A stretch of DNA of 64,000 nt from Patescibacteria group bacterium (GTDB lineage Bacteria > Patescibacteriota > Patescibacteriia > JACRDY01). The stretch lies in the NCBI GenBank assembly GCA_041671565.1, contig JBAZBH010000003.1, positions 572 to 64,571 of the forward strand. Direction: 5' to 3'. Made by a program: the position numbers and the translations under genes. The notes under the pieces were generated by a model that had not been told where the DNA came from, made no database searches, and saw only the letters and a list, made by a program, of their open reading frames with translations. The stretch's first letter is position 1. Each line of letters opens with the position of its first letter. Of this stretch, positions 3,134-50,867 are shown piece by piece.

Positions 3134-3171
3134 TTGTTTTTTTAAAAAAACCCCGCCGGTGGACGGCGGGA
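3134..3171. terminator. hairpin terminator cccgccggtggacggcggg, possibly bidirectional
   Basis: Same GC hairpin as 2659-2677, flanked by a T-run upstream and an A-run. Confidence 0.4.
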
Positions 3172-5740: not shown

Positions 5741-5875
5741 CCAATAACCGCGGTTAAAATGACAAAATCCAAATGACAAATGACAAATCAATACCAAATG
5801 CCAAAAGTCGGTTATTGGATATTGGTCATTTAGTCCGCCAACCGGCGGATGGACATTTGAGCTTTGGCATTTATT
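5741..5875. repeat. intergenic palindromic repeat, ccaatgacc / tggtcattgg family
   Basis: Related copies at 39645-39772 and 43219-43355; contains a gtccgccaaccggcggatggac hairpin. Confidence 0.5.
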
Positions 5876-13670: not shown

Positions 13671-13961
13671 ATGAAAATCAGCCAAAAAGAAATTGAACAT
13701 ATCGCTAGGCTTGCTCGGTTGGAGCTAACTTCGGCGGACAAGAAAAAATATGCCGGGCAACTCTCGGAGATTTTGGATTATATTGACCAATTAAAAACCG
13801 TTGATACTGCCGGCGTAACGCCGACTTATCAAGTCACCGGCCTCGGCGATGTGTCTCGCGCTGACGAAATTCAGCCGCTTGAAGCGGTTAAAGCGATTAA
13901 AGATAATTGGCCGGATCGGCAGGGTGATTATTTGAAGGTGCCGGGAGTTTTTGATAAATAA
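13671..13961 (+). CDS. gatC: Glu/Asp-tRNA amidotransferase subunit C
   Basis: 96 aa; ARLARLEL...IDQL motif typical of GatC; directly upstream of gatA. Confidence 0.8.
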   Translation: MKISQKEIEHIARLARLELTSADKKKYAGQLSEILDYIDQLKTVDTAGVTPTYQVTGLGDVSRADEIQPLEAVKAIKDNWPDRQGDYLKVPGVFDK

Positions 13962-13964
13962 AAT

Positions 13965-14060
13965 GAGTATTCAGGGAACAGTATGCAGTATTCAGGGGTT
14001 CAGATTAGCCGTTCGGGGATATAGTTCCCTGAATACTGCATACTGTTCCCCGAATACTCA
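13965..14060. repeat. palindromic repeat, gaatactgttccctgaatact family (copy 1 of 3)
   Basis: Inverted repeat cagggaacagtatgcagtattcagggg / cccctgaatactg...; related copies at 40268-40395 and 46271-46372. Confidence 0.65.
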
Positions 14061-14064
14061 AAAT

Positions 14065-15525
14065 ATGGATTTAAATCAACTGACAATCAAAGCAGCCCAT
14101 GAGGGCCTACGGAAAAAGGAATTTTCCGCGAGCGAACTTTTGGCGACTTGTTTTCAGCAACTGCAAAAATGGGAGCCGAAATTGAATGCTTATATTACTC
14201 TGAACGAAGCCGGCGCGGAAAAGGCGGCCCAGGCGGTTGACCGGCGGATTGCCAGTGGCGAAGAAATTTCTTATCTCGCCGGACTGCCGTTCGGGGTCAA
14301 AGACGCGATTTGTACTGAAGGGCTCCGTTCGACCGGTGGGGCGAAAATTTTGGATAATTATTTGCCGCCGTATGACGCGACGGTGATTCGGAAAATCAGA
14401 GCCAGCGGGGGAGTGATAATCGGCAAAAACAATTGTGATGCTTTTGGCCACGGCGCGTCGAACGAAAACAGCGATTACGGCCCGGTGAAAAACCCTTGGG
14501 ATCAGACTAAAGTGCCTGGCGGTTCGTCCGGCGGCTCAGCCGCGGCGGTGGCGACCGATTCTTGCTTTTACGCTGTGGCCGAAGACACCGGCGGTTCCAT
14601 TCGCCAACCGGCGTCATTTTGCGGCGTCACCGGCCTGAAACCGAGCTACGGCCGCAATTCCCGTTATGGTATTATGCCCATGGCTTCATCCCTGGACACC
14701 GTCGGCCCGATTGCCAAAACCGCTTGGGACGCGGCCGCGATTATGGAAACCATGGCGGGTTTTGATCCCCGTGACAGTACGACTTTTAACCAGCCGGCGC
14801 CGCGCTATACCAAGGAAATTGAACGACCGGTTAAAGGCTTGAAACTCGGACTGCCCAAAGAATACTTTGCCGCCGGCCTAGACGCCGAGCACGAGCGGGC
14901 GATTCGCGCCGCGATTAGCGAACTGGAAAGTTTGGGCGTTGAAGTCAAAGAAGTCAGCTTGCCGCACACCCGTTATGCCGTGGCGACTTATTATATTATT
15001 GTGCCGAGTGAAGACAGCGCCAATCTCGCGCGGCTGGACGGCATCCGTTATGGCGTCCGCGAGTCTGCCGACAGTTTGTTTGAAGTTTACGCCAATTCGC
15101 GCCAGAGCGGCCTGCCGGCGGAAGTGAAACGCCGGATTATGATTGGCACTTTTGCTTTGTCGCATGGTTATTATGATGCTTATTACACCCAGGCGGCCAA
15201 AGTCCGGACGCTCATCAAACGAGATTTTACCGAAGTATTTAAAGAAGTTGACGCTTTAGTTACGCCGGTTTCGCCGTTTTCACCCTTTCCGTTAGGCGCC
15301 AAAGCTGATGACCCGCTAGCCATGTACCTGGCTGATATTTATTTGATTCCGGCTAGCCTCTCCGGTGTGTGCGGTTTGTCCGTGCCTTGCGGCTTTACTG
15401 CCCGGAATCTGCCGATTGGTTTGCAGTTGATTGGTCCCTCGCTGGGCGAAGAAGTGGTTTTGCGCCTGGGCCACCAATATCAGGCGGTGACGGATTGGCA
15501 TCAACAGAAGCCCAAATTAAATTGA
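14065..15525 (+). CDS. gatA: Glu/Asp-tRNA amidotransferase subunit A (amidase signature family)
   Basis: Amidase signature GGSSGGSAAAVA...; start moved to the Met at 14065, beyond the repeat. Confidence 0.9.
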   Translation: MDLNQLTIKAAHEGLRKKEFSASELLATCFQQLQKWEPKLNAYITLNEAGAEKAAQAVDRRIASGEEISYLAGLPFGVKDAICTEGLRSTGGAKILDNYLPPYDATVIRKIRASGGVIIGKNNCDAFGHGASNENSDYGPVKNPWDQTKVPGGSSGGSAAAVATDSCFYAVAEDTGGSIRQPASFCGVTGLKPSYGRNSRYGIMPMASSLDTVGPIAKTAWDAAAIMETMAGFDPRDSTTFNQPAPRYTKEIERPVKGLKLGLPKEYFAAGLDAEHERAIRAAISELESLGVEVKEVSLPHTRYAVATYYIIVPSEDSANLARLDGIRYGVRESADSLFEVYANSRQSGLPAEVKRRIMIGTFALSHGYYDAYYTQAAKVRTLIKRDFTEVFKEVDALVTPVSPFSPFPLGAKADDPLAMYLADIYLIPASLSGVCGLSVPCGFTARNLPIGLQLIGPSLGEEVVLRLGHQYQAVTDWHQQKPKLN

Positions 15526-18555: not shown

Positions 18556-18638
18556 CGCAGGGAGACCACATAGTGGTCGAGTGCGCTCGCTTGGCCACCG
18601 CCTCCGGCGGGGTCCCGCCGCAGGCGGGAAAAGCGAGA
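18556..18638 (+). repeat. partial tRNA-Ser-like copy with a 34-nt GC-rich insertion (direct repeat of 19033-19115)
   Basis: gcagggagaccacatagtggtcgagtgcgctcgcttgg[ccaccgcc..gcaggcggg]aaagcgag; lacks the T-arm and acceptor 3' strand. Confidence 0.6.
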
Positions 18639-18679: not shown

Positions 18680-18766
18680 CGGAGAGATCGCATAGTGGTC
18701 TAGTGCGCTCGCTTGGAAAGCGAGTGTGGGGAAACCCACCGGGGGTTCGAATCCCCCCCTCTCCGC
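18680..18766 (+). tRNA. tRNA-Ser (anticodon GGA), long variable arm
   Basis: Cloverleaf by eye: anticodon loop cTTGGAAa, variable arm GTGTGGGGAAACCCACC, T-loop GGTTCGAATCC. Confidence 0.7.
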
Positions 18767-18791: not shown

Positions 18792-19049
18792 ATGTACACA
18801 GTTTATATAATTGAAAGTTTGTCGAACGGTAGGCATTATATCGGCGTTACTTCTGATCTGGCTCAGCGTTTACGGCACCATAACAGTGGCGCCAACAGGT
18901 CAACTAAGAACAGGGGACCATGGAAAATAGTTTATTCTGAAGTTTTTCCCGATCAAAAAACGGCTTGGTTAAGAGAACGGCAAATTAAGAAATATAAAGG
19001 TGGCGAGGCGTTTAAAAAACTTTTGATAAAAAGCAGGGAGACCACATAG
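18792..19049 (+). CDS. small GIY-YIG nuclease family protein (YhbQ / COG2827-like)
   Basis: YTVYIIES..GRHYIGVT..L..RL..HN...WKIVYSE.F....A..RERQIKK; about 85 aa; stop codon lies inside the downstream tRNA-like repeat. Confidence 0.7.
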   Translation: MYTVYIIESLSNGRHYIGVTSDLAQRLRHHNSGANRSTKNRGPWKIVYSEVFPDQKTAWLRERQIKKYKGGEAFKKLLIKSRETT

Positions 19050-19153
19050 TGGTCGAGTGCGCTCGCTTGGCCACCGCCTCCGGCGGGGTCCCGCCGCAGG
19101 CGGGAAAAGCGAGTATATCGAAAGGTATCGGGGGTTCGAATCCCCCCTCTCTC
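19033..19153 (+). pseudogene. tRNA-Ser-like copy carrying a 34-nt insertion in the anticodon loop and an altered variable arm
   Basis: Complete cloverleaf-length copy ...gcttgg[34 nt]aaagcgag tatatcgaaaggtatc gggggttcgaatcccccctctctccgcc; direct repeat of 18556-18638. Confidence 0.45.
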
Positions 19154-19187
19154 CGCCATGGACTTATTGGGATTTAAAATAGCGACG

Positions 19188-24345: not shown

Positions 24346-24428
24346 CAAGGATTGAAAGTAGCGGAGTGACACAGCCTCTGGCTGTGTTATAGTAAAGGCA
24401 GTAATTTTCTAAAAATAATTTTGAGTAT

Positions 24429-24500
24429 TCGGGGGTAGCTCAGTGGTAGAGCAGGTGGCTGTTAACCACCTTGTCGCAGGTTCGATCCCTGTCCCCCGAG
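24429..24500 (+). tRNA. tRNA-Asn (anticodon GTT)
   Basis: Cloverleaf by eye: acceptor TCGGGGG/CCCCCGA, D-arm GCTCAGTGGTAGAGC, anticodon loop CTGTTAA, T-loop GGTTCGATCC. Confidence 0.7.
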
Positions 24501-24524
24501 TTCTCAGAATTATTTTTTTTGCTC

Positions 24525-24600
24525 AGTGGTAGAGTCCGCCGCGGCGGATTAACCACCTTGTCGTCCGCCGATTCGGCGGATCCCCCGAGTTCTATCGCGG
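24525..24600 (+). repeat. degenerate tRNA-Asn fragment in which arms are replaced by tccgccgcggcgga and tccgccgattcggcgga hairpins
   Basis: gctcagtggtagag[tccgccgcggcgga]ttaaccaccttgtcg[tccgccgattcggcgga]tcccccgag aligned to the intact tRNA upstream. Confidence 0.6.
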
Positions 24601-24811
24601 ATTTTTTGTTTTGAAAAATATAGCCGGTGGCTGCTTGTCCCGCTTCAGCGAGCGCCAGCGAGCTGAGGCGGGATTAACCATCTGGTTATCTCCTACGGAA
24701 CCTTCTGAGTTTTAATGAAAAACATCAGCAAAACTGGTATTTTATGATGAGAGTTACATTAATAACTTAAAAGTGTTATACTGTTTATATAATTCATAAC
24801 TATAAATCACT

Positions 24812-33144: not shown

Positions 33145-33264
33145 GATTAAGGAAATTAAATAGCGGAGTAACGGGGCATCTGCCCCGTTGTGCTTTTCGG
33201 AATGACACAGCCTCTGGCTGTGTTTTTTAGTTTGGTAGGATAAATTTTCTTTAGCCCTCGCCGG

Positions 33265-33560
33265 GCAGGCGTTACTTTTGTGACCAAAAGTAACCAAAAG
33301 TCCCGGCCTGCCCGCAATGCTTCGCATAGCAAAGCAGGCGGGGGTGGCAAAAAGCCCGATCTTCGTGGCACCTTTCTACTGCTCGCCCCGCTTCATCCCG
33401 CCAGTCGCGACTGGCGGGACGAGCCTCGCAGTCGCTACCTTTGGTTCTATTACCCCTATATATCGCTTTGCGGCAACATATATTTACTAGTTAGCCGAAA
33501 GGGTCGGTTCGTCTCGGGGCTTTGCCACCCCGGACCCCGATTCTGGTTGGTTTTGTACTT
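33265..33560 (+). ncRNA. candidate structured non-coding element, copy 2 of 2
   Basis: See 18150-18410; differs by internal insertions while the 5' and 3' conserved blocks are near-identical. Confidence 0.35.
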
Positions 33561-33770
33561 TTGAAGGAAAGACACTGTAGAGGAGTGCTCTAATAAAAGT
33601 CACCTTACAGCCTAACCGGCTGTTTTTTTGTTAGCTTTAGCCTAATTTAATTGTGGATAAATCCGAGTGGTTGCTTTTTATAGTTTGGTGGTGTATAATG
33701 GTATGTAGTGGAGGAATGTGGATAAAGGTGGGGAGAACTTAGACAAAGGGGGATAATAAAAATAAGGCTT

Positions 33771-35185: not shown

Positions 35186-35605
35186 GTGAGAATTCCCGTT
35201 ACTTTGGGCCTAACTATGACCACCTACATCCAAAACAAAAAAACCCACCTTCTCCGCCAAATCGGCGGATTCGGCGGGCAAGCAAAACAAAAAGACAACG
35301 GGCGCGAGACAAGTCGGGTTTTTAGTTATCGGCATTTAAATATCGGTTTAATCTGCCTGATAATTTTGACCGGATTTTTTTATTTAACCCAAGTCAACGC
35401 TTCGGCGGTCAAAGGCTATATTATTGCTGACCTAGGCGCGAAACTGGAAGCGGCCCAGACCGAGAACCGGAAACTGGAGTTAACCAGCCAGTCTTTGCAG
35501 TCAGTTGGTGATTTGGCAGAGAAAACCAAGGAGCTCGGTTTAGTGGACGCCGGTCAGGTGGAATATCTGCAAGCGCCGGGCGGGGTGGTGGCGGTGGCGA
35601 GGTAG
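35186..35605 (+). CDS. FtsL-like cell division protein (single transmembrane helix plus coiled coil)
   Basis: Position after mraZ-rsmH, single transmembrane helix, periplasmic coiled coil. Confidence 0.5.
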   Translation: MRIPVTLGLTMTTYIQNKKTHLLRQIGGFGGQAKQKDNGRETSRVFSYRHLNIGLICLIILTGFFYLTQVNASAVKGYIIADLGAKLEAAQTENRKLELTSQSLQSVGDLAEKTKELGLVDAGQVEYLQAPGGVVAVAR

Positions 35606-35969: not shown

Positions 35970-36584
35970 ATGTCCGATATCACTGTGGAACAGTTGGGCG
36001 AACTTATCGCCCAGGCAAAGTCTAAGGACGGGAAGCCGCCGCGAGTTACTCGCGAAAATCTGCAAACCTTCTTGCGCAATCCAGACGGATTCGTCGCGGG
36101 CGGCACGCAGTATCTCCGTCTCCTCCCAGGCCAGCCGCTCACCATCGGTCCGACCAGCGGTTCCCGAATCATCGCCAATGCGGTCGATGTGTTCAAGGCT
36201 GGTATTGACGGCGATTTCAACAACTGGGGAGTTAACCGACCGGCGAAAGAGACCGAAGAAATGGTGATCAGCCCTCCCTACGAGCTGGTGACCAACGGCA
36301 AATTCGCCGAGATTTTTGGCTCGTTGTCGGCAGACCCGCGCCGACTGTGCTGGACGCAGGACCAGATCATTAAATATGTGGTCACGCACCCTGACCAACT
36401 CGGCGCCAACAGGAACTTTTTTCTGACCGAATCGGGTGGGGAGTTCTTCGTGGTCGATGTGTATGTGTACGACGACGGTCGGCTCAACGCCGATGTCGGC
36501 CGGTTCGACCTTGCCCGTGTCTGGCGCGCCGAGGACCGGCATCGGTTCTTCGCTCCGCAACTGGCGAATCCTTTGGCCGTTTAG
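35970..36584 (+). CDS. DGR target (variable) protein; the variable repeat encodes its C-terminal ~40 residues
   Basis: Last 122 nt of the coding sequence form the VR; good ribosome-binding site; C-terminal FFVVDVYVYDDGRLNADVGRFDLARVWRAEDRHRFFAPQL is the diversified segment. Confidence 0.7.
   Translation: MSDITVEQLGELIAQAKSKDGKPPRVTRENLQTFLRNPDGFVAGGTQYLRLLPGQPLTIGPTSGSRIIANAVDVFKAGIDGDFNNWGVNRPAKETEEMVISPPYELVTNGKFAEIFGSLSADPRRLCWTQDQIIKYVVTHPDQLGANRNFFLTESGGEFFVVDVYVYDDGRLNADVGRFDLARVWRAEDRHRFFAPQLANPLAV
36444..36565 (+). repeat. DGR variable repeat (VR)
   Basis: 122-nt match to 36908-37029 with 16 mismatches, each at a TR adenine (11 A->G, 3 A->C, 2 A->T). Confidence 0.85.
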
Positions 36585-36907
36585 GCCCCTGGACGCTTTG
36601 TCACTCTTTCCCTTGGGCTCTCAAGATGCACATGCACTTGAAGTCCAAGGGATTTTTTTATACAATAACTATGCAGTTTGGAAAATTTGCGGCTACGGCT
36701 TCAAATCAAAACTGTTGAAGATCATTATTCCAGAATTTCGTTGGATATGTCTTGCGAAAGAGTGAAAATGCTTTCCATAATAAAAAACAGCCAGTTGGTG
36801 CCAGCAGCTAGTGGACTTCTATGTCCCAAATAAAATTCAACCCTAAGTCCGTCCGCCAACCGGCGGACGGACAAGGGGCGGTGACTAAAGACGGCTGGTG
36901 GCACATT

Positions 36908-37029
36908 TTCTTCGTGGTCAATGTGAATGTGTACGACGACGGTCAGCTCAACGCCAATGTCAACCGGTTCGACAATGCCAATGTCTGGAACGCCGAGAAC
37001 CGGCATCGGTTCTTCGCTCCACAACTAAC
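36908..37029 (+). repeat. DGR template repeat (TR), rich in AAC/AAT codons in the VR frame
   Basis: Invariant non-A positions and adenine-only differences versus the VR; not inside a credible gene. Confidence 0.85.
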
Positions 37030-49306: not shown

Positions 49307-49375
49307 GCCGTCGTAGCTCAGACCCGGCCCTAGCGGGCCGTAGGCCCGGGGCTGGTAGAGCAATCCCATGGCTCG
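49307..49375 (+). repeat. tRNA-Thr 5'-half pseudo-copy with a GC-rich insertion in the D-loop
   Basis: gccgtcgtagctcag[acccggccctagcgggccgtaggcccggggc]tggtagagcaatcccatgg aligned to the intact tRNA-Thr at 49413. Confidence 0.55.
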
Positions 49376-49412: not shown

Positions 49413-49488
49413 GCCGTCGTAGCTCAGTTGGTAGAGCAATTCCATGGTAAGGAATAGGTCCGCGGTTCAATTCCGCGCGACGGCTCCA
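49413..49488 (+). tRNA. tRNA-Thr (anticodon GGT), CCA encoded
   Basis: Acceptor GCCGTCG/CGACGGC, D-arm GCTCAGTTGGTAGAGC, anticodon loop ATGGTAA, T-arm CGCGGTTCAATTCCGCG, CCA at the 3' end. Confidence 0.75.
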
Positions 49489-49527: not shown

Positions 49528-49785
49528 ATGTATAATGTTTATATCTTAAAATTAGCCAATGCCGATTTGTATGTTGGGTCAACCGGTAACATTAAAAATA
49601 GAATAAAACAACATCAGGCGGGGCAGAGCCAATATACTAAGAAATGTTTGCCGGTTAAGTTAATATACTTCGAATGTTATTGTAGTAAGAAAGACGCTTT
49701 AATTAGAGAAAAGTTTTTAAAAAGCGGCAGAGGCAGGGAAGTAATCAAAAAACAATTAGAAAACACCCTTAAGGTCAAAAGATAA
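49528..49785 (+). CDS. small GIY-YIG nuclease family protein (YhbQ/COG2827-like), second copy
   Basis: MYNVYILKLANADLYVGSTGN..NR..QH; same family and length as 18792-19049; embedded between tRNAs. Confidence 0.65.
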   Translation: MYNVYILKLANADLYVGSTGNIKNRIKQHQAGQSQYTKKCLPVKLIYFECYCSKKDALIREKFLKSGRGREVIKKQLENTLKVKR

Positions 49786-49884
49786 TTTGAGGTAGTGCCA
49801 GTTTGTCAACTGGGGCTGATCCGCCGAATCGGCGGACTGGCTTTGCCTTCGGGGCCGACGAATGATATTTTAATAGTTATATAA

Positions 49885-49966
49885 GGGTCGGTACCAAAGC
49901 GGTCAACTGGGGCTGACTGTAAATCAGCTGGCTTTGCCTTCGGGGGTTCGAATCCCTCCCGGCCCA
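49885..49966 (+). tRNA. tRNA-Tyr (anticodon GTA), long variable arm
   Basis: Acceptor GGGTCGG/CCGGCCC, anticodon loop CTGTAAA, variable arm TGGCTTTGCCTTCG, T-loop GGTTCGAATCC. Confidence 0.7.
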
Positions 49967-50342
49967 TATCAGAGAGAACGAATTAGTTAGTTCGTTCTTT
50001 TTGATTTATAACTGGGGCTGATCCGCCGAATCGGCGGACTGGCTTTGCCTTCGGGGGTTCGAATCCCTCCCGGCCCATATCAGAGAGAACGAATTAGTTA
50101 GTTCGTTCTTTTTGATTTATAACTGGGGCTGATCCGCCGAATCGGCGGACTGGCTTTGCCTTCGGGGGTTCGAATCCCTCCCGGCCCATATCAGAGAGAA
50201 CGAATTAGTTAGTTCGTTCTTTTTGATTTATAACTGGGGCTGATCCGCCGAATCGGCGGACTGGCTTTGCCTTCGGGGGTTCGGACCTGTCCGCCGTAGC
50301 ATCCGCCAGCAGGCGGAGCGGTGGCGGATCCCTCCCGGCCCA
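49967..50342 (+). repeat. three tandem ~111-nt units: terminator-like hairpin plus a tRNA-Tyr 3' fragment with the anticodon arm replaced by tccgccgaatcggcgga; the last unit has a 44-nt T-loop insertion
   Basis: Units at 49967-50077, 50078-50188 and 50189-50342; a partial unit also at 49806-49856 upstream of tRNA-Tyr. Confidence 0.8.
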
Positions 50343-50867
50343 AATTAAAAACATCTCAAACAGTCAGAGGTGTTTTTTTGTAACATTCTTAGTTAACCCG
50401 CGTCTAATTAGTTAGTAGACACTTTTTTTATGACAATTAATGGCCAAAATTTATCCAGCCTCGCGGCCGGTCTGCGGCCGAGCCGTTTTAGCCCCCGCGC
50501 CAAATATGCCTTGGCCGCGGCGACTTGCCTTAAGTTCGGCGGGCTGATTTTTTGGCTAATAATCAGGGGTTAAGCTAAAAAATAGCAAATTATTTTTAAA
50601 TGCCTGGTTTTAAAACAGCCGGGTTTTTTAACTGTCATAATTCGCTAGAAAATGCCCGTCTTGGCCGGCAAACGGTTAAAATAAGGCATTAATCCATTTA
50701 TCCACAATTTCCTTGACGGCAGCCGTTAAACTGCTATACTACAGCCAGTTTACCGCAGACCACGGGCAATCAATAAGCCCCGTGCAGGTAAAAGAGCCAG
50801 ATTTTGGCTAAATTTATGTCTGCGGCTAGATCCGCAGATTTTTATTTTATATTGAAACATTATATTT

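Follow-up and report, generated by a model that had tools for sequence, protein, structure and literature searches.

How do partial copies of tRNA genes come to carry short, GC-rich palindromes at the very positions where the loops of the cloverleaf should be? The question is raised by a stretch of 64,000 nucleotides from a Patescibacteria group bacterium (GenBank assembly GCA_041671565.1, contig JBAZBH010000003.1, positions 572 to 64,571 of the forward strand; hereafter, the window), in which a tRNA-Asn gene is followed by a fragment that repeats blocks of it, broken by hairpins of the form TCCGCC...GGCGGA. An initial annotation, made from the sequence of the window, described a free palindrome that invades tRNA-shaped repeats. 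Comparison with public genomes and metagenomes points to a different answer. The hairpins are probably the signature modules of a selfish cassette, built around a gene of about 85 codons for an Slx1-like GIY-YIG nuclease, that settles at tRNA genes. The cassette, which is apparently undescribed and widespread, would belong to the selfish, free-standing genes of the homing-endonuclease type, here exploiting tRNA genes. The literature searched, the coverage of which was incomplete, nowhere describes small GIY-YIG genes flanked by tRNA duplicates that hairpins interrupt, and within that coverage the initial view of an undescribed class of element stands.

Hairpins break tRNA copies throughout the window

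The motif TCCGCC-N(2-6)-GGCGGA occurs 10 times in the 64-kb window, against a mean of 0.05 copies in 100 dinucleotide-preserving shuffles of the same DNA, in which the maximum was one copy and none reached 10. Seven of the 10 copies lie within tRNA-like fragments, bearing out the expectation that the hairpins are non-random and enriched in this context. All four tRNA genes of the window (Ser, Asn, Thr, and Tyr) are accompanied by partial copies that GC hairpins interrupt at D-, anticodon- or T-loop positions, and two genes for 85-residue GIY-YIG nucleases, g1 and g2, are located among these fragments. The earlier focus on Asn and Tyr fragments was therefore sound but too narrow, as tRNA-Ser, tRNA-Thr, and a third, Asn-like fragment are also affected. 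Similarly, the hairpin said to be the same in the Asn and Tyr fragments is indeed the same near-perfect palindrome, but the two 17-mers, TCCGCCGATTCGGCGGA and TCCGCCGAATCGGCGGA, differ in their central base. The precise replacement or interruption of tRNA arms by hairpins was confirmed in alignments. The tRNA genes, tRNA-like fragments, and nuclease genes described below are on the plus strand, and palindromes are given without a strand.

The four intact tRNA genes are recognized by both ARAGORN and Rfam, whereas Rfam, at gathering as well as permissive thresholds, assigns no family to the fragments. The suggestion that a tRNA-like L-shape might be preserved fails: the 5′ acceptor strand is missing, the anticodon is deleted, and the hairpins dominate the predicted folds. 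L-shaped tRNA mimics were accordingly rejected, as were introns of the group I or bulge-helix-bulge type, since excision would not yield a complete tRNA and most copies lack the 5′ acceptor strand; inserts of 14–44 nucleotides are, moreover, too short for a group I core. Palindromic excision footprints are at odds with the same sequence at different loci, and quasi-palindrome correction with hairpin sequences that are unrelated to the arms they replace. General dispersed repeats were rejected because the hairpins are concentrated near GIY-YIG genes, and phage-borne hairpins because a scan of viral contigs with the 17-mer gave only chance matches in GC-rich coding DNA.

The tRNA-Asn locus: a probable relic between empty and occupied sites

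The tRNA-Asn locus (24428-24685) opens with an intact tRNA-Asn(GTT) gene at 24428..24501, the functional copy (Rfam tRNA, 68 bits). It is followed at 24521..24593 by a 73-nucleotide duplicate without a nuclease gene, the blocks of which are 100% identical to tRNA-Asn. Block-by-block alignment gave the makeup that the initial annotation had described: a D-arm block, an anticodon 3′ block, and two hairpin substitutions. The D-arm block (24521-24534) corresponds to tRNA-Asn positions 11–24 (14/14 identical). It is followed by the first hairpin, H1, a perfect 14-bp palindrome, TCCGCCGCGGCGGA (24535..24548), which replaces the 5′ strand of the anticodon stem together with CTG, standing where tRNA-Asn has ‘caggtggctg’. 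The anticodon 3′ block (24549-24563) matches positions 35–49 (15/15 identical), after which the second hairpin, H2 TCCGCCGATTCGGCGGA (24564..24580), replaces the entire T-arm, and the fragment closes with the acceptor 3′ strand (positions 65–74) and a trailing ‘ttct’ (24581-24593). A third, more decayed Asn-like fragment at 24626..24685 keeps its anticodon stem, and a 40-nucleotide GC hairpin (24634-24673) is inserted in its anticodon loop after CTG; its RNA fold is predicted at −42.3 kcal/mol (z = −4.45).

The relic thus combines one hairpin of what is here called the Asn lineage, in the anticodon arm, with one palindrome typical of the nuclease clade of g1, in the T-arm. The core of H2, CCGCCGAWTCGGCGG, is common to L205-L208, and L209 carries a one-base variant of it (L with a number labels a compared genome or metagenome locus). 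The design of an anticodon hairpin followed by a T-loop hairpin is found 3′ of GIY-YIG genes in L143, L133, L135, and L091.

A clue to the origin of the relic comes from the orthologous site in other genomes, where a sigma-70 gene precedes tRNA-Asn. The closest relatives of this sigma-70 protein are at most 84% identical and come from organisms named Falkowbacteria or Uhrbacteria. In L070, L073, and L074, a plain tRNA-Asn comes after the sigma-70 gene, with neither duplicate nor hairpin; these are empty sites. In the Falkowbacteria locus L075, the same position is occupied, and a 75-nucleotide direct repeat lies on either side of a GIY-YIG gene. The repeat consists of 13 nucleotides of flank, tRNA-Asn-like positions 1–24, an identical TCCGCCGCGGCGGA, and ‘ttaaccgcttgg’, and its second copy runs on into the T-arm and acceptor strand. 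The palindrome TCCGCCGCGGCGGA therefore stands at the same tRNA position as in the window, on both sides of the nuclease gene. The site is thus empty in three genomes, occupied in one, and holds a relic in the window. Because L075 has the same hairpin around a GIY-YIG gene at the orthologous site, the Asn fragment of the window is best read as what remains of a cassette from which the nuclease gene has gone. In the palindrome, the 3′ half (GGCGG) matches the anticodon stem expected for L075 and mismatches the ‘ccacc’ of the window, which suggests that the hairpin was inherited or transferred and not made locally.

The Asn locus is identical in three other, independently assembled samples, and is for this reason not an assembly artefact. 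Loci L001-L005 are identical to the window, without strain-level polymorphism among them, with the exception of L004 at tRNA-Tyr.

Nuclease genes among the tRNA-Ser, tRNA-Thr and tRNA-Tyr copies

The tRNA-Ser locus still has its nuclease gene. A 5′ pseudo-tRNA-Ser fragment (18560..18637) carries a 34-nucleotide double-hairpin module (18595-18628) in its anticodon loop, and is followed by the intact tRNA-Ser(GGA) gene (18681..18766) and by g2 (18792..19049; Pfam PF01541, E = 3.2e-18). The stop codon of g2 falls within the D-arm of a downstream, full-length pseudo-tRNA-Ser (19036..19157), which holds the same double-hairpin module in its anticodon loop (19071-19104) and differs in its variable arm. 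Homologous double-hairpin modules occupy the same anticodon-loop position in L034, L040, and L043. The double TCCCGC module, placed between anticodon-loop positions 35 and 36 of the tRNA-Ser copies, is shared by the window and three other genomes of the Candidate Phyla Radiation (CPR), and in all four it neighbors proteins like g2, which clusters with tRNA-Ser-linked homologs from CPR.

The second nuclease gene lies between two different tRNA genes. A 5′ pseudo-tRNA-Thr (49307..49371) with a GC hairpin inserted in its D-loop (49334-49348) precedes the intact tRNA-Thr(GGT) (49413..49488). Next comes g1 (49528..49785; Pfam PF01541, E = 1.4e-13), placed between tRNA-Thr and a 5′ pseudo-tRNA-Tyr (49789..49854) that has a diverged acceptor and D-arm. 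In this pseudo-tRNA, TCCGCCGAATCGGCGGA (49820-49836) replaces the anticodon loop and the 3′ stem. The intact tRNA-Tyr(GTA) follows at 49885..49966. In the syntenic locus L206, another hairpin occupies the corresponding D-loop position of the pseudo-tRNA-Thr, and both L205 and L206 have the same hairpin as the window at the same position of the pseudo-tRNA-Tyr; the arrangement of the whole Thr-Tyr locus differs between the window and L206.

Downstream of the intact tRNA-Tyr, three tandem 111-nucleotide units without a nuclease gene (49967..50342) carry hairpins at 50022, 50133, and 50244, so that TCCGCCGAATCGGCGGA stands in place of ‘ctgtaaatcag’ in four tRNA-Tyr fragments when that at 49820 is included. 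Each unit consists of a 43-nucleotide trailer with a terminator, ‘aactggggctga’, the hairpin, and the 3′ part of tRNA-Tyr, and the last unit has, in addition, a nested 44-nucleotide GC-hairpin insertion in its T-loop (50284-50327). The same 43-nucleotide trailer follows the intact tRNA-Tyr and the first two units. The trailer of the last unit is different: with its terminator (50343..50379), it aligns with the trailer directly 3′ of the intact tRNA-Tyr in L206, and is thus the native one. Because the native terminator is attached to the last unit, the simplest reading takes the last tRNA-Tyr 3′ half for the original, which three units without a gene have displaced. So read, a displacing unit combines the 3′ part of the tRNA with the trailer, a short piece of D-arm and anticodon stem, and the hairpin, and such units would have arisen by repeated insertion or by unequal recombination. 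In L004, a short-read assembly of the same organism, the upstream pseudo-tRNA-Tyr is joined directly to the last unit (compared with 49806-50231 of the window). The absence of the intact tRNA-Tyr and the repeats from this assembly is probably a repeat collapse, and possibly a deletion variant.

Small GIY-YIG genes, tRNA genes and hairpins occur together

The link between nuclease gene, tRNA, and hairpin is general. A protein-guided scan with one genome per species recovered 64 loci with relatives of g1 and g2, which split into two groups: tRNA-adjacent clades in Bacteroidota, Patescibacteria, and others, and another clade in Firmicutes and others. A tRNA gene on the same strand abuts the nuclease gene in 19 of the 28 scanned loci of the tRNA-adjacent clades, versus 1 of 32 in the other clade. 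GC hairpins (counted as types TCC(C/G)(G/C)N or CCTG(C/T)C) reach 0.93 per kb within 300 nucleotides of the gene in the tRNA-adjacent clades and 0.10 per kb farther off, and there are none in 104 kb around the genes of the other clade.

Occupied sites in these public genomes have a common anatomy. One intact tRNA is kept on one side of the nuclease gene; the other side holds a partial duplicate of it, broken by a clade-specific GC hairpin between D-loop positions 21 and 22, in the anticodon loop, or in the T-loop. In all 14 loci with a recognizable duplicate, its blocks are 100% identical to the adjacent tRNA and it is interrupted by at least one GC hairpin in the D-, anticodon, or T-loop; among these 14, no uninterrupted tRNA duplicate was seen. 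Five tRNA-adjacent loci without a duplicate likewise lack hairpins. These findings replace two elements of the initial annotation. The hairpins are not free palindromes but are tied to GIY-YIG genes that abut tRNA genes, with a type that tracks the nuclease clade, and the tRNA-shaped repeats are, rather than targets of independent origin, duplicates that appear to form as the cassette settles at a tRNA gene.

The type of hairpin follows the clade of the nuclease and not the tRNA or the host, as judged from the sequences compared. The five relatives in the g1 clade (56–72% protein identity) share one layout: a 5′ piece of the local tRNA, CCGCCGA(W/G)TCGGCGG, a short local tRNA piece, the nuclease gene, and the intact tRNA. 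This tRNA is tRNA-Tyr in two of the relatives (three genomes with the window) and tRNA-Gly in the other three, so that CCGCCGAWTCGGCGG goes with the g1 clade on both tRNAs. Another type, CCTGCCTGCCGGCAGGCAGG, is cleanly inserted between D-loop positions 21 and 22 of Bacteroidota tRNA-Arg duplicates and of a Peribacteria tRNA-Phe duplicate, and a variant of it breaks the T-stem of a Bacteroidota tRNA-Ala duplicate; the proteins of these loci cluster together. The presence of the same palindrome of 15–17 nucleotides in the Tyr anticodon arm, the Asn T-arm, and tRNA-Gly excludes simple vertical decay.

The Asn lineage was followed into metagenomes by searching for the hairpin followed by TTAACC, which matched more than 120 stretches. 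About half of the 95 matches in 80 loci, among the matches listed, read ‘..tagctcagtYggYagag - hairpin - ttaaccRct..’. On long contigs, zero to four units (flank, tRNA 5′ part, hairpin) are followed by the intact tRNA-Asn with its terminator, and then by the GIY-YIG gene. Beyond the gene come a D-arm-like block, a copy of the hairpin, and the 3′ part of the tRNA, where a second TCCGCC hairpin often takes the place of the T-loop. This stretch after the gene matches the design of the Asn fragment in the window. In 11 of 13 Asn-lineage loci, the open reading frame of the nuclease passes through the D-arm-like block and the hairpin, with tails such as ..GRASPPQAD*, and stops at the TAA of the anticodon-loop TTAA, which indicates that the hairpin belongs to the gene unit. 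In L098, the units stand in tandem, and each joins the 3′ part of the tRNA, through a spacer, to the gene and the hairpin. ARAGORN miscalls several hairpin-bearing tRNA-Asn-like copies as tRNA-Stop(tta), tRNA-Ser(tga), tRNA-Arg(cct), and tRNA-Ser(aga) (L075 3587-3665, L116 204-277, L119 747-827, and L161 432-512), taking the hairpin loop or a shortened loop as the anticodon.

Several further observations were made at the compared loci. Large serine recombinase genes lie on the opposite strand directly beside two of the GIY-YIG/tRNA loci (L075 3533-5230 and L207 757-2136), and other mobile DNA may share these tRNA sites. L205 has, at 1480-1760, a pseudo-tRNA with a tRNA-Val-like 5′ part and matching acceptor halves (gggcaat / attgccc), the D-loop of which is split by an intact tRNA-Val; GC-rich arms are present at both junctions and there is no nuclease gene. 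A conserved metagenome family, ‘..ttcaagttcaaggaaggcga TCCGCCTCAGGCGGA ttaaccacaggaatacattgagtattttgaggat..’, carries the same type of hairpin outside any tRNA (L087, L090, L097, L105, L115, L124, L140, and L154, with similar sequences in L095, L101, L163, and L164), and possibly represents a structured RNA from a different mobile element.

The proteins: a bare Slx1-like nuclease domain

Both g1 and g2 retain the invariant residues Y2, Y5, Y15, G17, R25, H29, and E61, and thereby the Tyr/Tyr/Arg/Glu core of the GIY-YIG superfamily. The domain spans residues 1–67 of 85, as a stand-alone, minimal unit; members of the family have 79–97 residues, and a separate sequence-reading DNA-binding domain is absent. 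The PADLOC, PHROGs, and NCBIfam libraries returned only generic GIY-YIG similarity, including weak N-terminal matches in NCBIfam to group I intron endonucleases, well under the cut-off. The sole sequence match in the PDB is 1ZG2 (UPF0213 protein BH0048, E = 1.5e-7), and by sequence the proteins belong to the prokaryotic Slx1-like/UPF0213 branch of the superfamily. Slx1-family nucleases, as in Slx1-Slx4, are structure-specific. The same property is given for the family in the work that classes BH0048 as a bacterial Slx1-like minimal GIY-YIG domain (PMC1564403).

A proposed selfish cassette and how it may work

If the hairpins are modules of a selfish cassette, the comparisons suggest how it could spread. 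The nuclease would break the DNA of tRNA genes at conserved loop regions, as the phage enzyme SegB does, and homologous recombination between tRNA sequences would then copy the cassette, yielding the duplicates and arrays. The hairpin would mark where the cassette meets the tRNA piece that it displaced and, by removing loop sequence, would leave a copy that can neither work as a tRNA nor offer a long, unbroken substrate for recombination or cleavage. Subsequent recombination among the repeats could delete the nuclease gene and amplify or truncate the fragments; the 111-nucleotide tRNA-Tyr repeats would then be units without a gene that were inserted, or were amplified, in front of the original 3′ half. 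The palindrome is probably also the recognition structure of the nuclease itself, since it is conserved with the nuclease clade across different tRNAs.

Several findings weigh against this account. All of the evidence is comparative, and hairpin type could accompany nuclease clade simply because the two are inherited together, and not through recognition. Several tRNA-adjacent GIY-YIG loci (L009, L024, and L064) have neither duplicate nor hairpin. The palindrome TCCGCCAAATCGGCGGA at 35253..35269, a one-base variant of the g1 type, stands in a context that is not recognizably tRNA-like, and no significant tRNA similarity was found there. The intact tRNA beside the nuclease gene retains the presumed target, leaving the immunity of an occupied allele unexplained. 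The same palindrome is found without shared flanks in the Tyr anticodon arm, at tRNA-Gly positions 22–31, and in the Asn T-arm; such contexts call for an additional insertion step, and gene conversion alone is therefore insufficient. In many loci, moreover, a short stretch of local tRNA separates the hairpin from the nuclease gene, so that the hairpin is not simply the physical end of one contiguous insert.

The reach of one palindrome into contexts without shared flanks keeps open, tentatively, a bolder version of the cassette, in which nuclease and clade-specific GC palindrome would together constitute a mobile unit of a new kind. A structure-specific nuclease would recognize and cut the extruded palindrome or loops of tRNA-gene DNA, and the palindrome would be inserted at loops of redundant tRNA copies, bracketing a cassette able to carry a replacement tRNA.

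Alternative explanations

Two alternatives, each rather unlikely, give the hairpin a role of its own. According to the first, which is a serious rival, it acts in RNA: the hairpins would form stable stem-loops at one end, 5′ or 3′, of a nuclease mRNA co-transcribed with the tRNA, protecting the message after tRNA processing and preventing the leftover piece from folding or being processed as a tRNA, and their constancy would reflect selection for expression and not a DNA mechanism. The positions are suggestive. Hairpins lie 17–90 nucleotides upstream of the start codon in L013 and L205-L209 and otherwise at the stop codon or in the 3′ region, with 11 of 13 Asn-lineage genes ending one nucleotide past the hairpin, and the nuclease gene always adjoins the tRNA on the same strand. 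The Asn lineage keeps stems and varies loops, L099 has a compensatory stem variant (TACGCC...GGCGTA), and the hairpins dominate predicted RNA folds. An RNA hairpin, however, has no need to be perfectly palindromic through its center, as TCCGCCGCGGCGGA, TCCGCCTAGGCGGA, and CCTGCCTGCCGGCAGGCAGG are, nor to conserve the entire g1-clade 15-mer, ‘loop’ included, between proteins of 56–72% identity; any GC hairpin would do, yet identical sequences recur on different tRNAs. Hairpins are also found far from the nuclease gene, in upstream arrays and in the Asn and Tyr relics of the window, and a terminator often separates the tRNA from the nuclease gene (L143). Stem mismatches of the G-T versus A-C kind, which bear on selection at the RNA or DNA level, were available in only five informative hairpins, too few for a strand bias. 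The other alternative, to which a still lower probability is given and which comes near the view of the initial annotation, treats the palindromes as miniature elements of 14–20 bp, autonomous or mobilized in trans. With the Slx1-like GIY-YIG protein as mobilizing enzyme, they would be cut out and pasted in where tRNA-like DNA forms single-stranded or cruciform loops, in a manner comparable to repetitive extragenic palindromic (REP) sequences and their REP-associated tyrosine transposase (RAYT). The same 17-mer is indeed present in a Tyr anticodon arm, an Asn T-arm, and a non-tRNA site of one genome, the Asn relic mixes two hairpin types, the g1-type 15-mer sits on tRNA-Tyr and tRNA-Gly without shared flanks, and hairpins are nested at 50284-50327. 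L011, L013, and L039 have a pure 20-nucleotide insertion between D-loop positions 21 and 22, of which L016 has a shortened variant, and the structure specificity of Slx1-family nucleases (PMC1564403) would suit such loops. Against this, the palindromes are not dispersed but nearly confined to tRNA duplicates beside GIY-YIG genes, with only chance occurrences in viral contigs, and many cases are replacements with variable deletions instead of clean insertions. Neither target-site duplications nor a strain-level gain was seen. To our knowledge, no GIY-YIG enzyme has transposase activity.

Less can be said for two further explanations. tRNA genes are classic integration sites, at which partial 3′ duplicates are expected on island borders, and large serine recombinase genes adjoin L075 and L207; the fragments might thus be decaying pseudogenes or attachment remnants of integrase islands with unrelated terminators or chance palindromes, or, given the collapse of the Tyr array in one short-read assembly (L004), assembly artefacts. 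This is very improbable and is already contradicted by the recurrence statistics: the motif exceeds its chance expectation (10 versus 0.05), dozens of independent genomes and metagenomes share the architecture and the hairpins, and the window sequence was assembled three times independently. Between the repeats lies a GIY-YIG gene of about 260 bp alone, without an integrase, and no T-runs follow the hairpins. Scarcely credible at all is the notion that the copies are functional RNAs, either tRNAs with removable mini-introns or tRNA-like RNAs that serve the nuclease as decoys or antitoxins, as in type III toxin-antitoxin systems. It draws on full-length hairpin-bearing copies without a nearby intact tRNA (L075, L161, and L025), on repeat arrays upstream of a terminator and nuclease gene that resemble ToxI-ToxN (L143 and L162), and on the variable arm of a pseudo-tRNA-Ser, which retains a GAAA hairpin although every stem pair has changed. 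Removal of the hairpin, however, restores no anticodon, as the Asn copy lacks CTG and the Tyr copies lack the loop and 3′ stem. Most copies lack an acceptor strand, position 33 in the hairpin loop is C and not U, Rfam and ARAGORN reject the copies as tRNAs, spurious calls aside, and most loci have no arrays.

Comparison with known systems

The closest precedent for the selfish cassette is SegB, a GIY-YIG enzyme encoded in the tRNA gene cluster of T-even phages, which cuts inside tRNA genes (PMC13096335). SegB drives the tandem amplification of tRNA-Tyr together with segB through homologous recombination, in which microhomology of the 3′ end of segB to the tRNA plays a part; we read its reported motif, RAWTSGAAC (PMC13096335), as the complement of the T-loop box. 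In both systems, a GIY-YIG gene lies between tRNA genes on the same strand; segB moves horizontally, as the cassette gene also appears to, and for the cassette, too, cutting in tRNA genes and recombinational repair are proposed to give rise to tandem units of tRNA and nuclease gene. SegB is larger, and truncation of its C-terminus by 28 residues abolishes its toxicity (PMC13096335), whereas the cassette enzymes, with 85 residues, are the bare catalytic core of an Slx1-like lineage. The cassette genes are, in addition, chromosomal, in Patescibacteria, Bacteroidota, and others, whereas segB is a phage gene, and clade-specific GC palindromes in duplicated tRNA copies have not been described for SegB. 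Enzymes of the Seg and I-TevI types carry a separate DNA-binding domain. With homing endonuclease genes in general, the cassette shares a presence/absence polymorphism at a conserved site, as seen at sigma-70/tRNA-Asn. In collaborative homing, as known from cyanophage psbA, a free-standing endonuclease acts together with an intron that protects the occupied allele. There too, the presumed cleavage site holds an insertion that is distinct from the endonuclease gene next to it, but the intron is spliced and the host gene remains functional, whereas the hairpins cannot be removed and hence sit only in the redundant copy.

Members of the UPF0213/Slx1-like family (PDB 1ZG2 for BH0048, and 1YWL; PMC1564403) belong, by sequence, to the same fold family and are likewise stand-alone proteins of about 80–100 residues without an auxiliary domain. 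They have been taken for repair nucleases that are inherited vertically and whose role is unknown. The branch sampled here mainly from Firmicutes has neither tRNA adjacency nor hairpins, whereas the tRNA-adjacent, hairpin-associated branch behaves like a selfish element. Integrative elements that target tRNA genes, such as tyrosine-integrase islands and phages, resemble the cassette in inserting at a loop sublocation of the gene, in supplying a replacement part that keeps the tRNA intact, and in leaving a partial tRNA copy as a direct repeat. The cassette differs in its lack of an integrase, its payload of about 260 bp, its duplicates on both the 5′ and 3′ sides, and its displaced copy, which is broken by a hairpin and is not a clean attachment-site repeat. 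Between the intact tRNA and the duplicate, the 85-residue GIY-YIG gene stands alone, without a tyrosine or serine integrase, and the serine recombinase genes near L075 and L207 lie outside the repeat pair.

The palindromes themselves recall REP sequences and REPINs, as well as the GC clusters and double-hairpin elements of fungal mitochondria, being short and GC-rich in AT-richer DNA, conserved in families with variable centers, and occasionally nested. Mitochondrial GC clusters co-occur with free-standing endonuclease genes. REPs, however, are intergenic, dispersed in tens to hundreds of copies, and paired with a Y1 HUH enzyme, whereas the cassette palindromes are confined to cloverleaf loop positions in tRNA duplicates beside a GIY-YIG gene. 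No gene for a Y1 HUH transposase was found at the tRNA loci, although the open reading frames of the window were not systematically scanned for Y1.

Other hairpins and repeats in the window

The initial annotation had counted two hairpins, one of them beside a putative diversity-generating retroelement (DGR), as relatives of the tRNA hairpins. The two, at 5830-5852 and 36847-36872, have only a 23-nucleotide hairpin in common and show no similarity to tRNA, and are therefore treated as unrelated to the family; a link of the tRNA hairpins to the DGR was rejected. The latter hairpin, of 26 nucleotides and GC-rich, lies about 285 nucleotides after the first and 36 nucleotides before the second member of a 119-nucleotide repeat pair (88% identity), the variable-repeat-like copy at 36444-36562 and the template-repeat-like copy at 36908-37026, which resembles the variable and template repeats of DGRs. 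A hairpin that forms part of the target recognition signal of a DGR would be expected directly after the variable repeat.

An intergenic region of about 600 nucleotides (33145-33770) is rich in GC stems, contains a perfect 24-bp palindrome, TCCCGCCAGTCGCGACTGGCGGGA, at 33396-33419, and has no Rfam match; it is a candidate for a structured RNA not yet described. At the start of this region (33161-33225), and also upstream of tRNA-Asn (24363-24391), stands the motif ‘agcggagt[g]a...cacagcctctggctgtgtt’. At a gene junction, a long, near-perfect inverted repeat (13948-14074) matches plant microRNA precursor models on both strands, with E-values down to 4e-6 at scores far below gathering. The 19-nucleotide hairpin CCCGCCGGTGGACGGCGGG occurs identically at 2660-2678 and 3152-3170, about 490 nucleotides apart, each preceded by an A-rich run, and these hairpins may be terminators.

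Implications

The selfish cassette would account for a set of annotation oddities beside tRNA genes in Patescibacteria, Bacteroidota, and other phyla, namely spurious ‘tRNA-Stop’, ‘tRNA-Ser’, and ‘tRNA-Arg’ calls, broken contigs, and tandem tRNA-like repeats. It also suggests that nuclease-driven rearrangement and amplification of tRNA genes, which has been demonstrated only lately, for SegB, takes place in bacterial chromosomes as well. If the nuclease and palindrome do form a mobile unit, this would be the first GIY-YIG-driven system of a nuclease and a mini-palindrome, comparable to RAYT/REP, and a widespread family of ‘repair’ proteins, the role of which is unknown, would thereby acquire a selfish function. 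Should the palindromes be the nuclease's own substrate, they would provide a very small, programmable pair of structure and nuclease. For the tRNA-adjacent branch of the large group of tiny GIY-YIG proteins (UPF0213, Slx1-like), which is without a known function, the finding offers a concrete and testable role.

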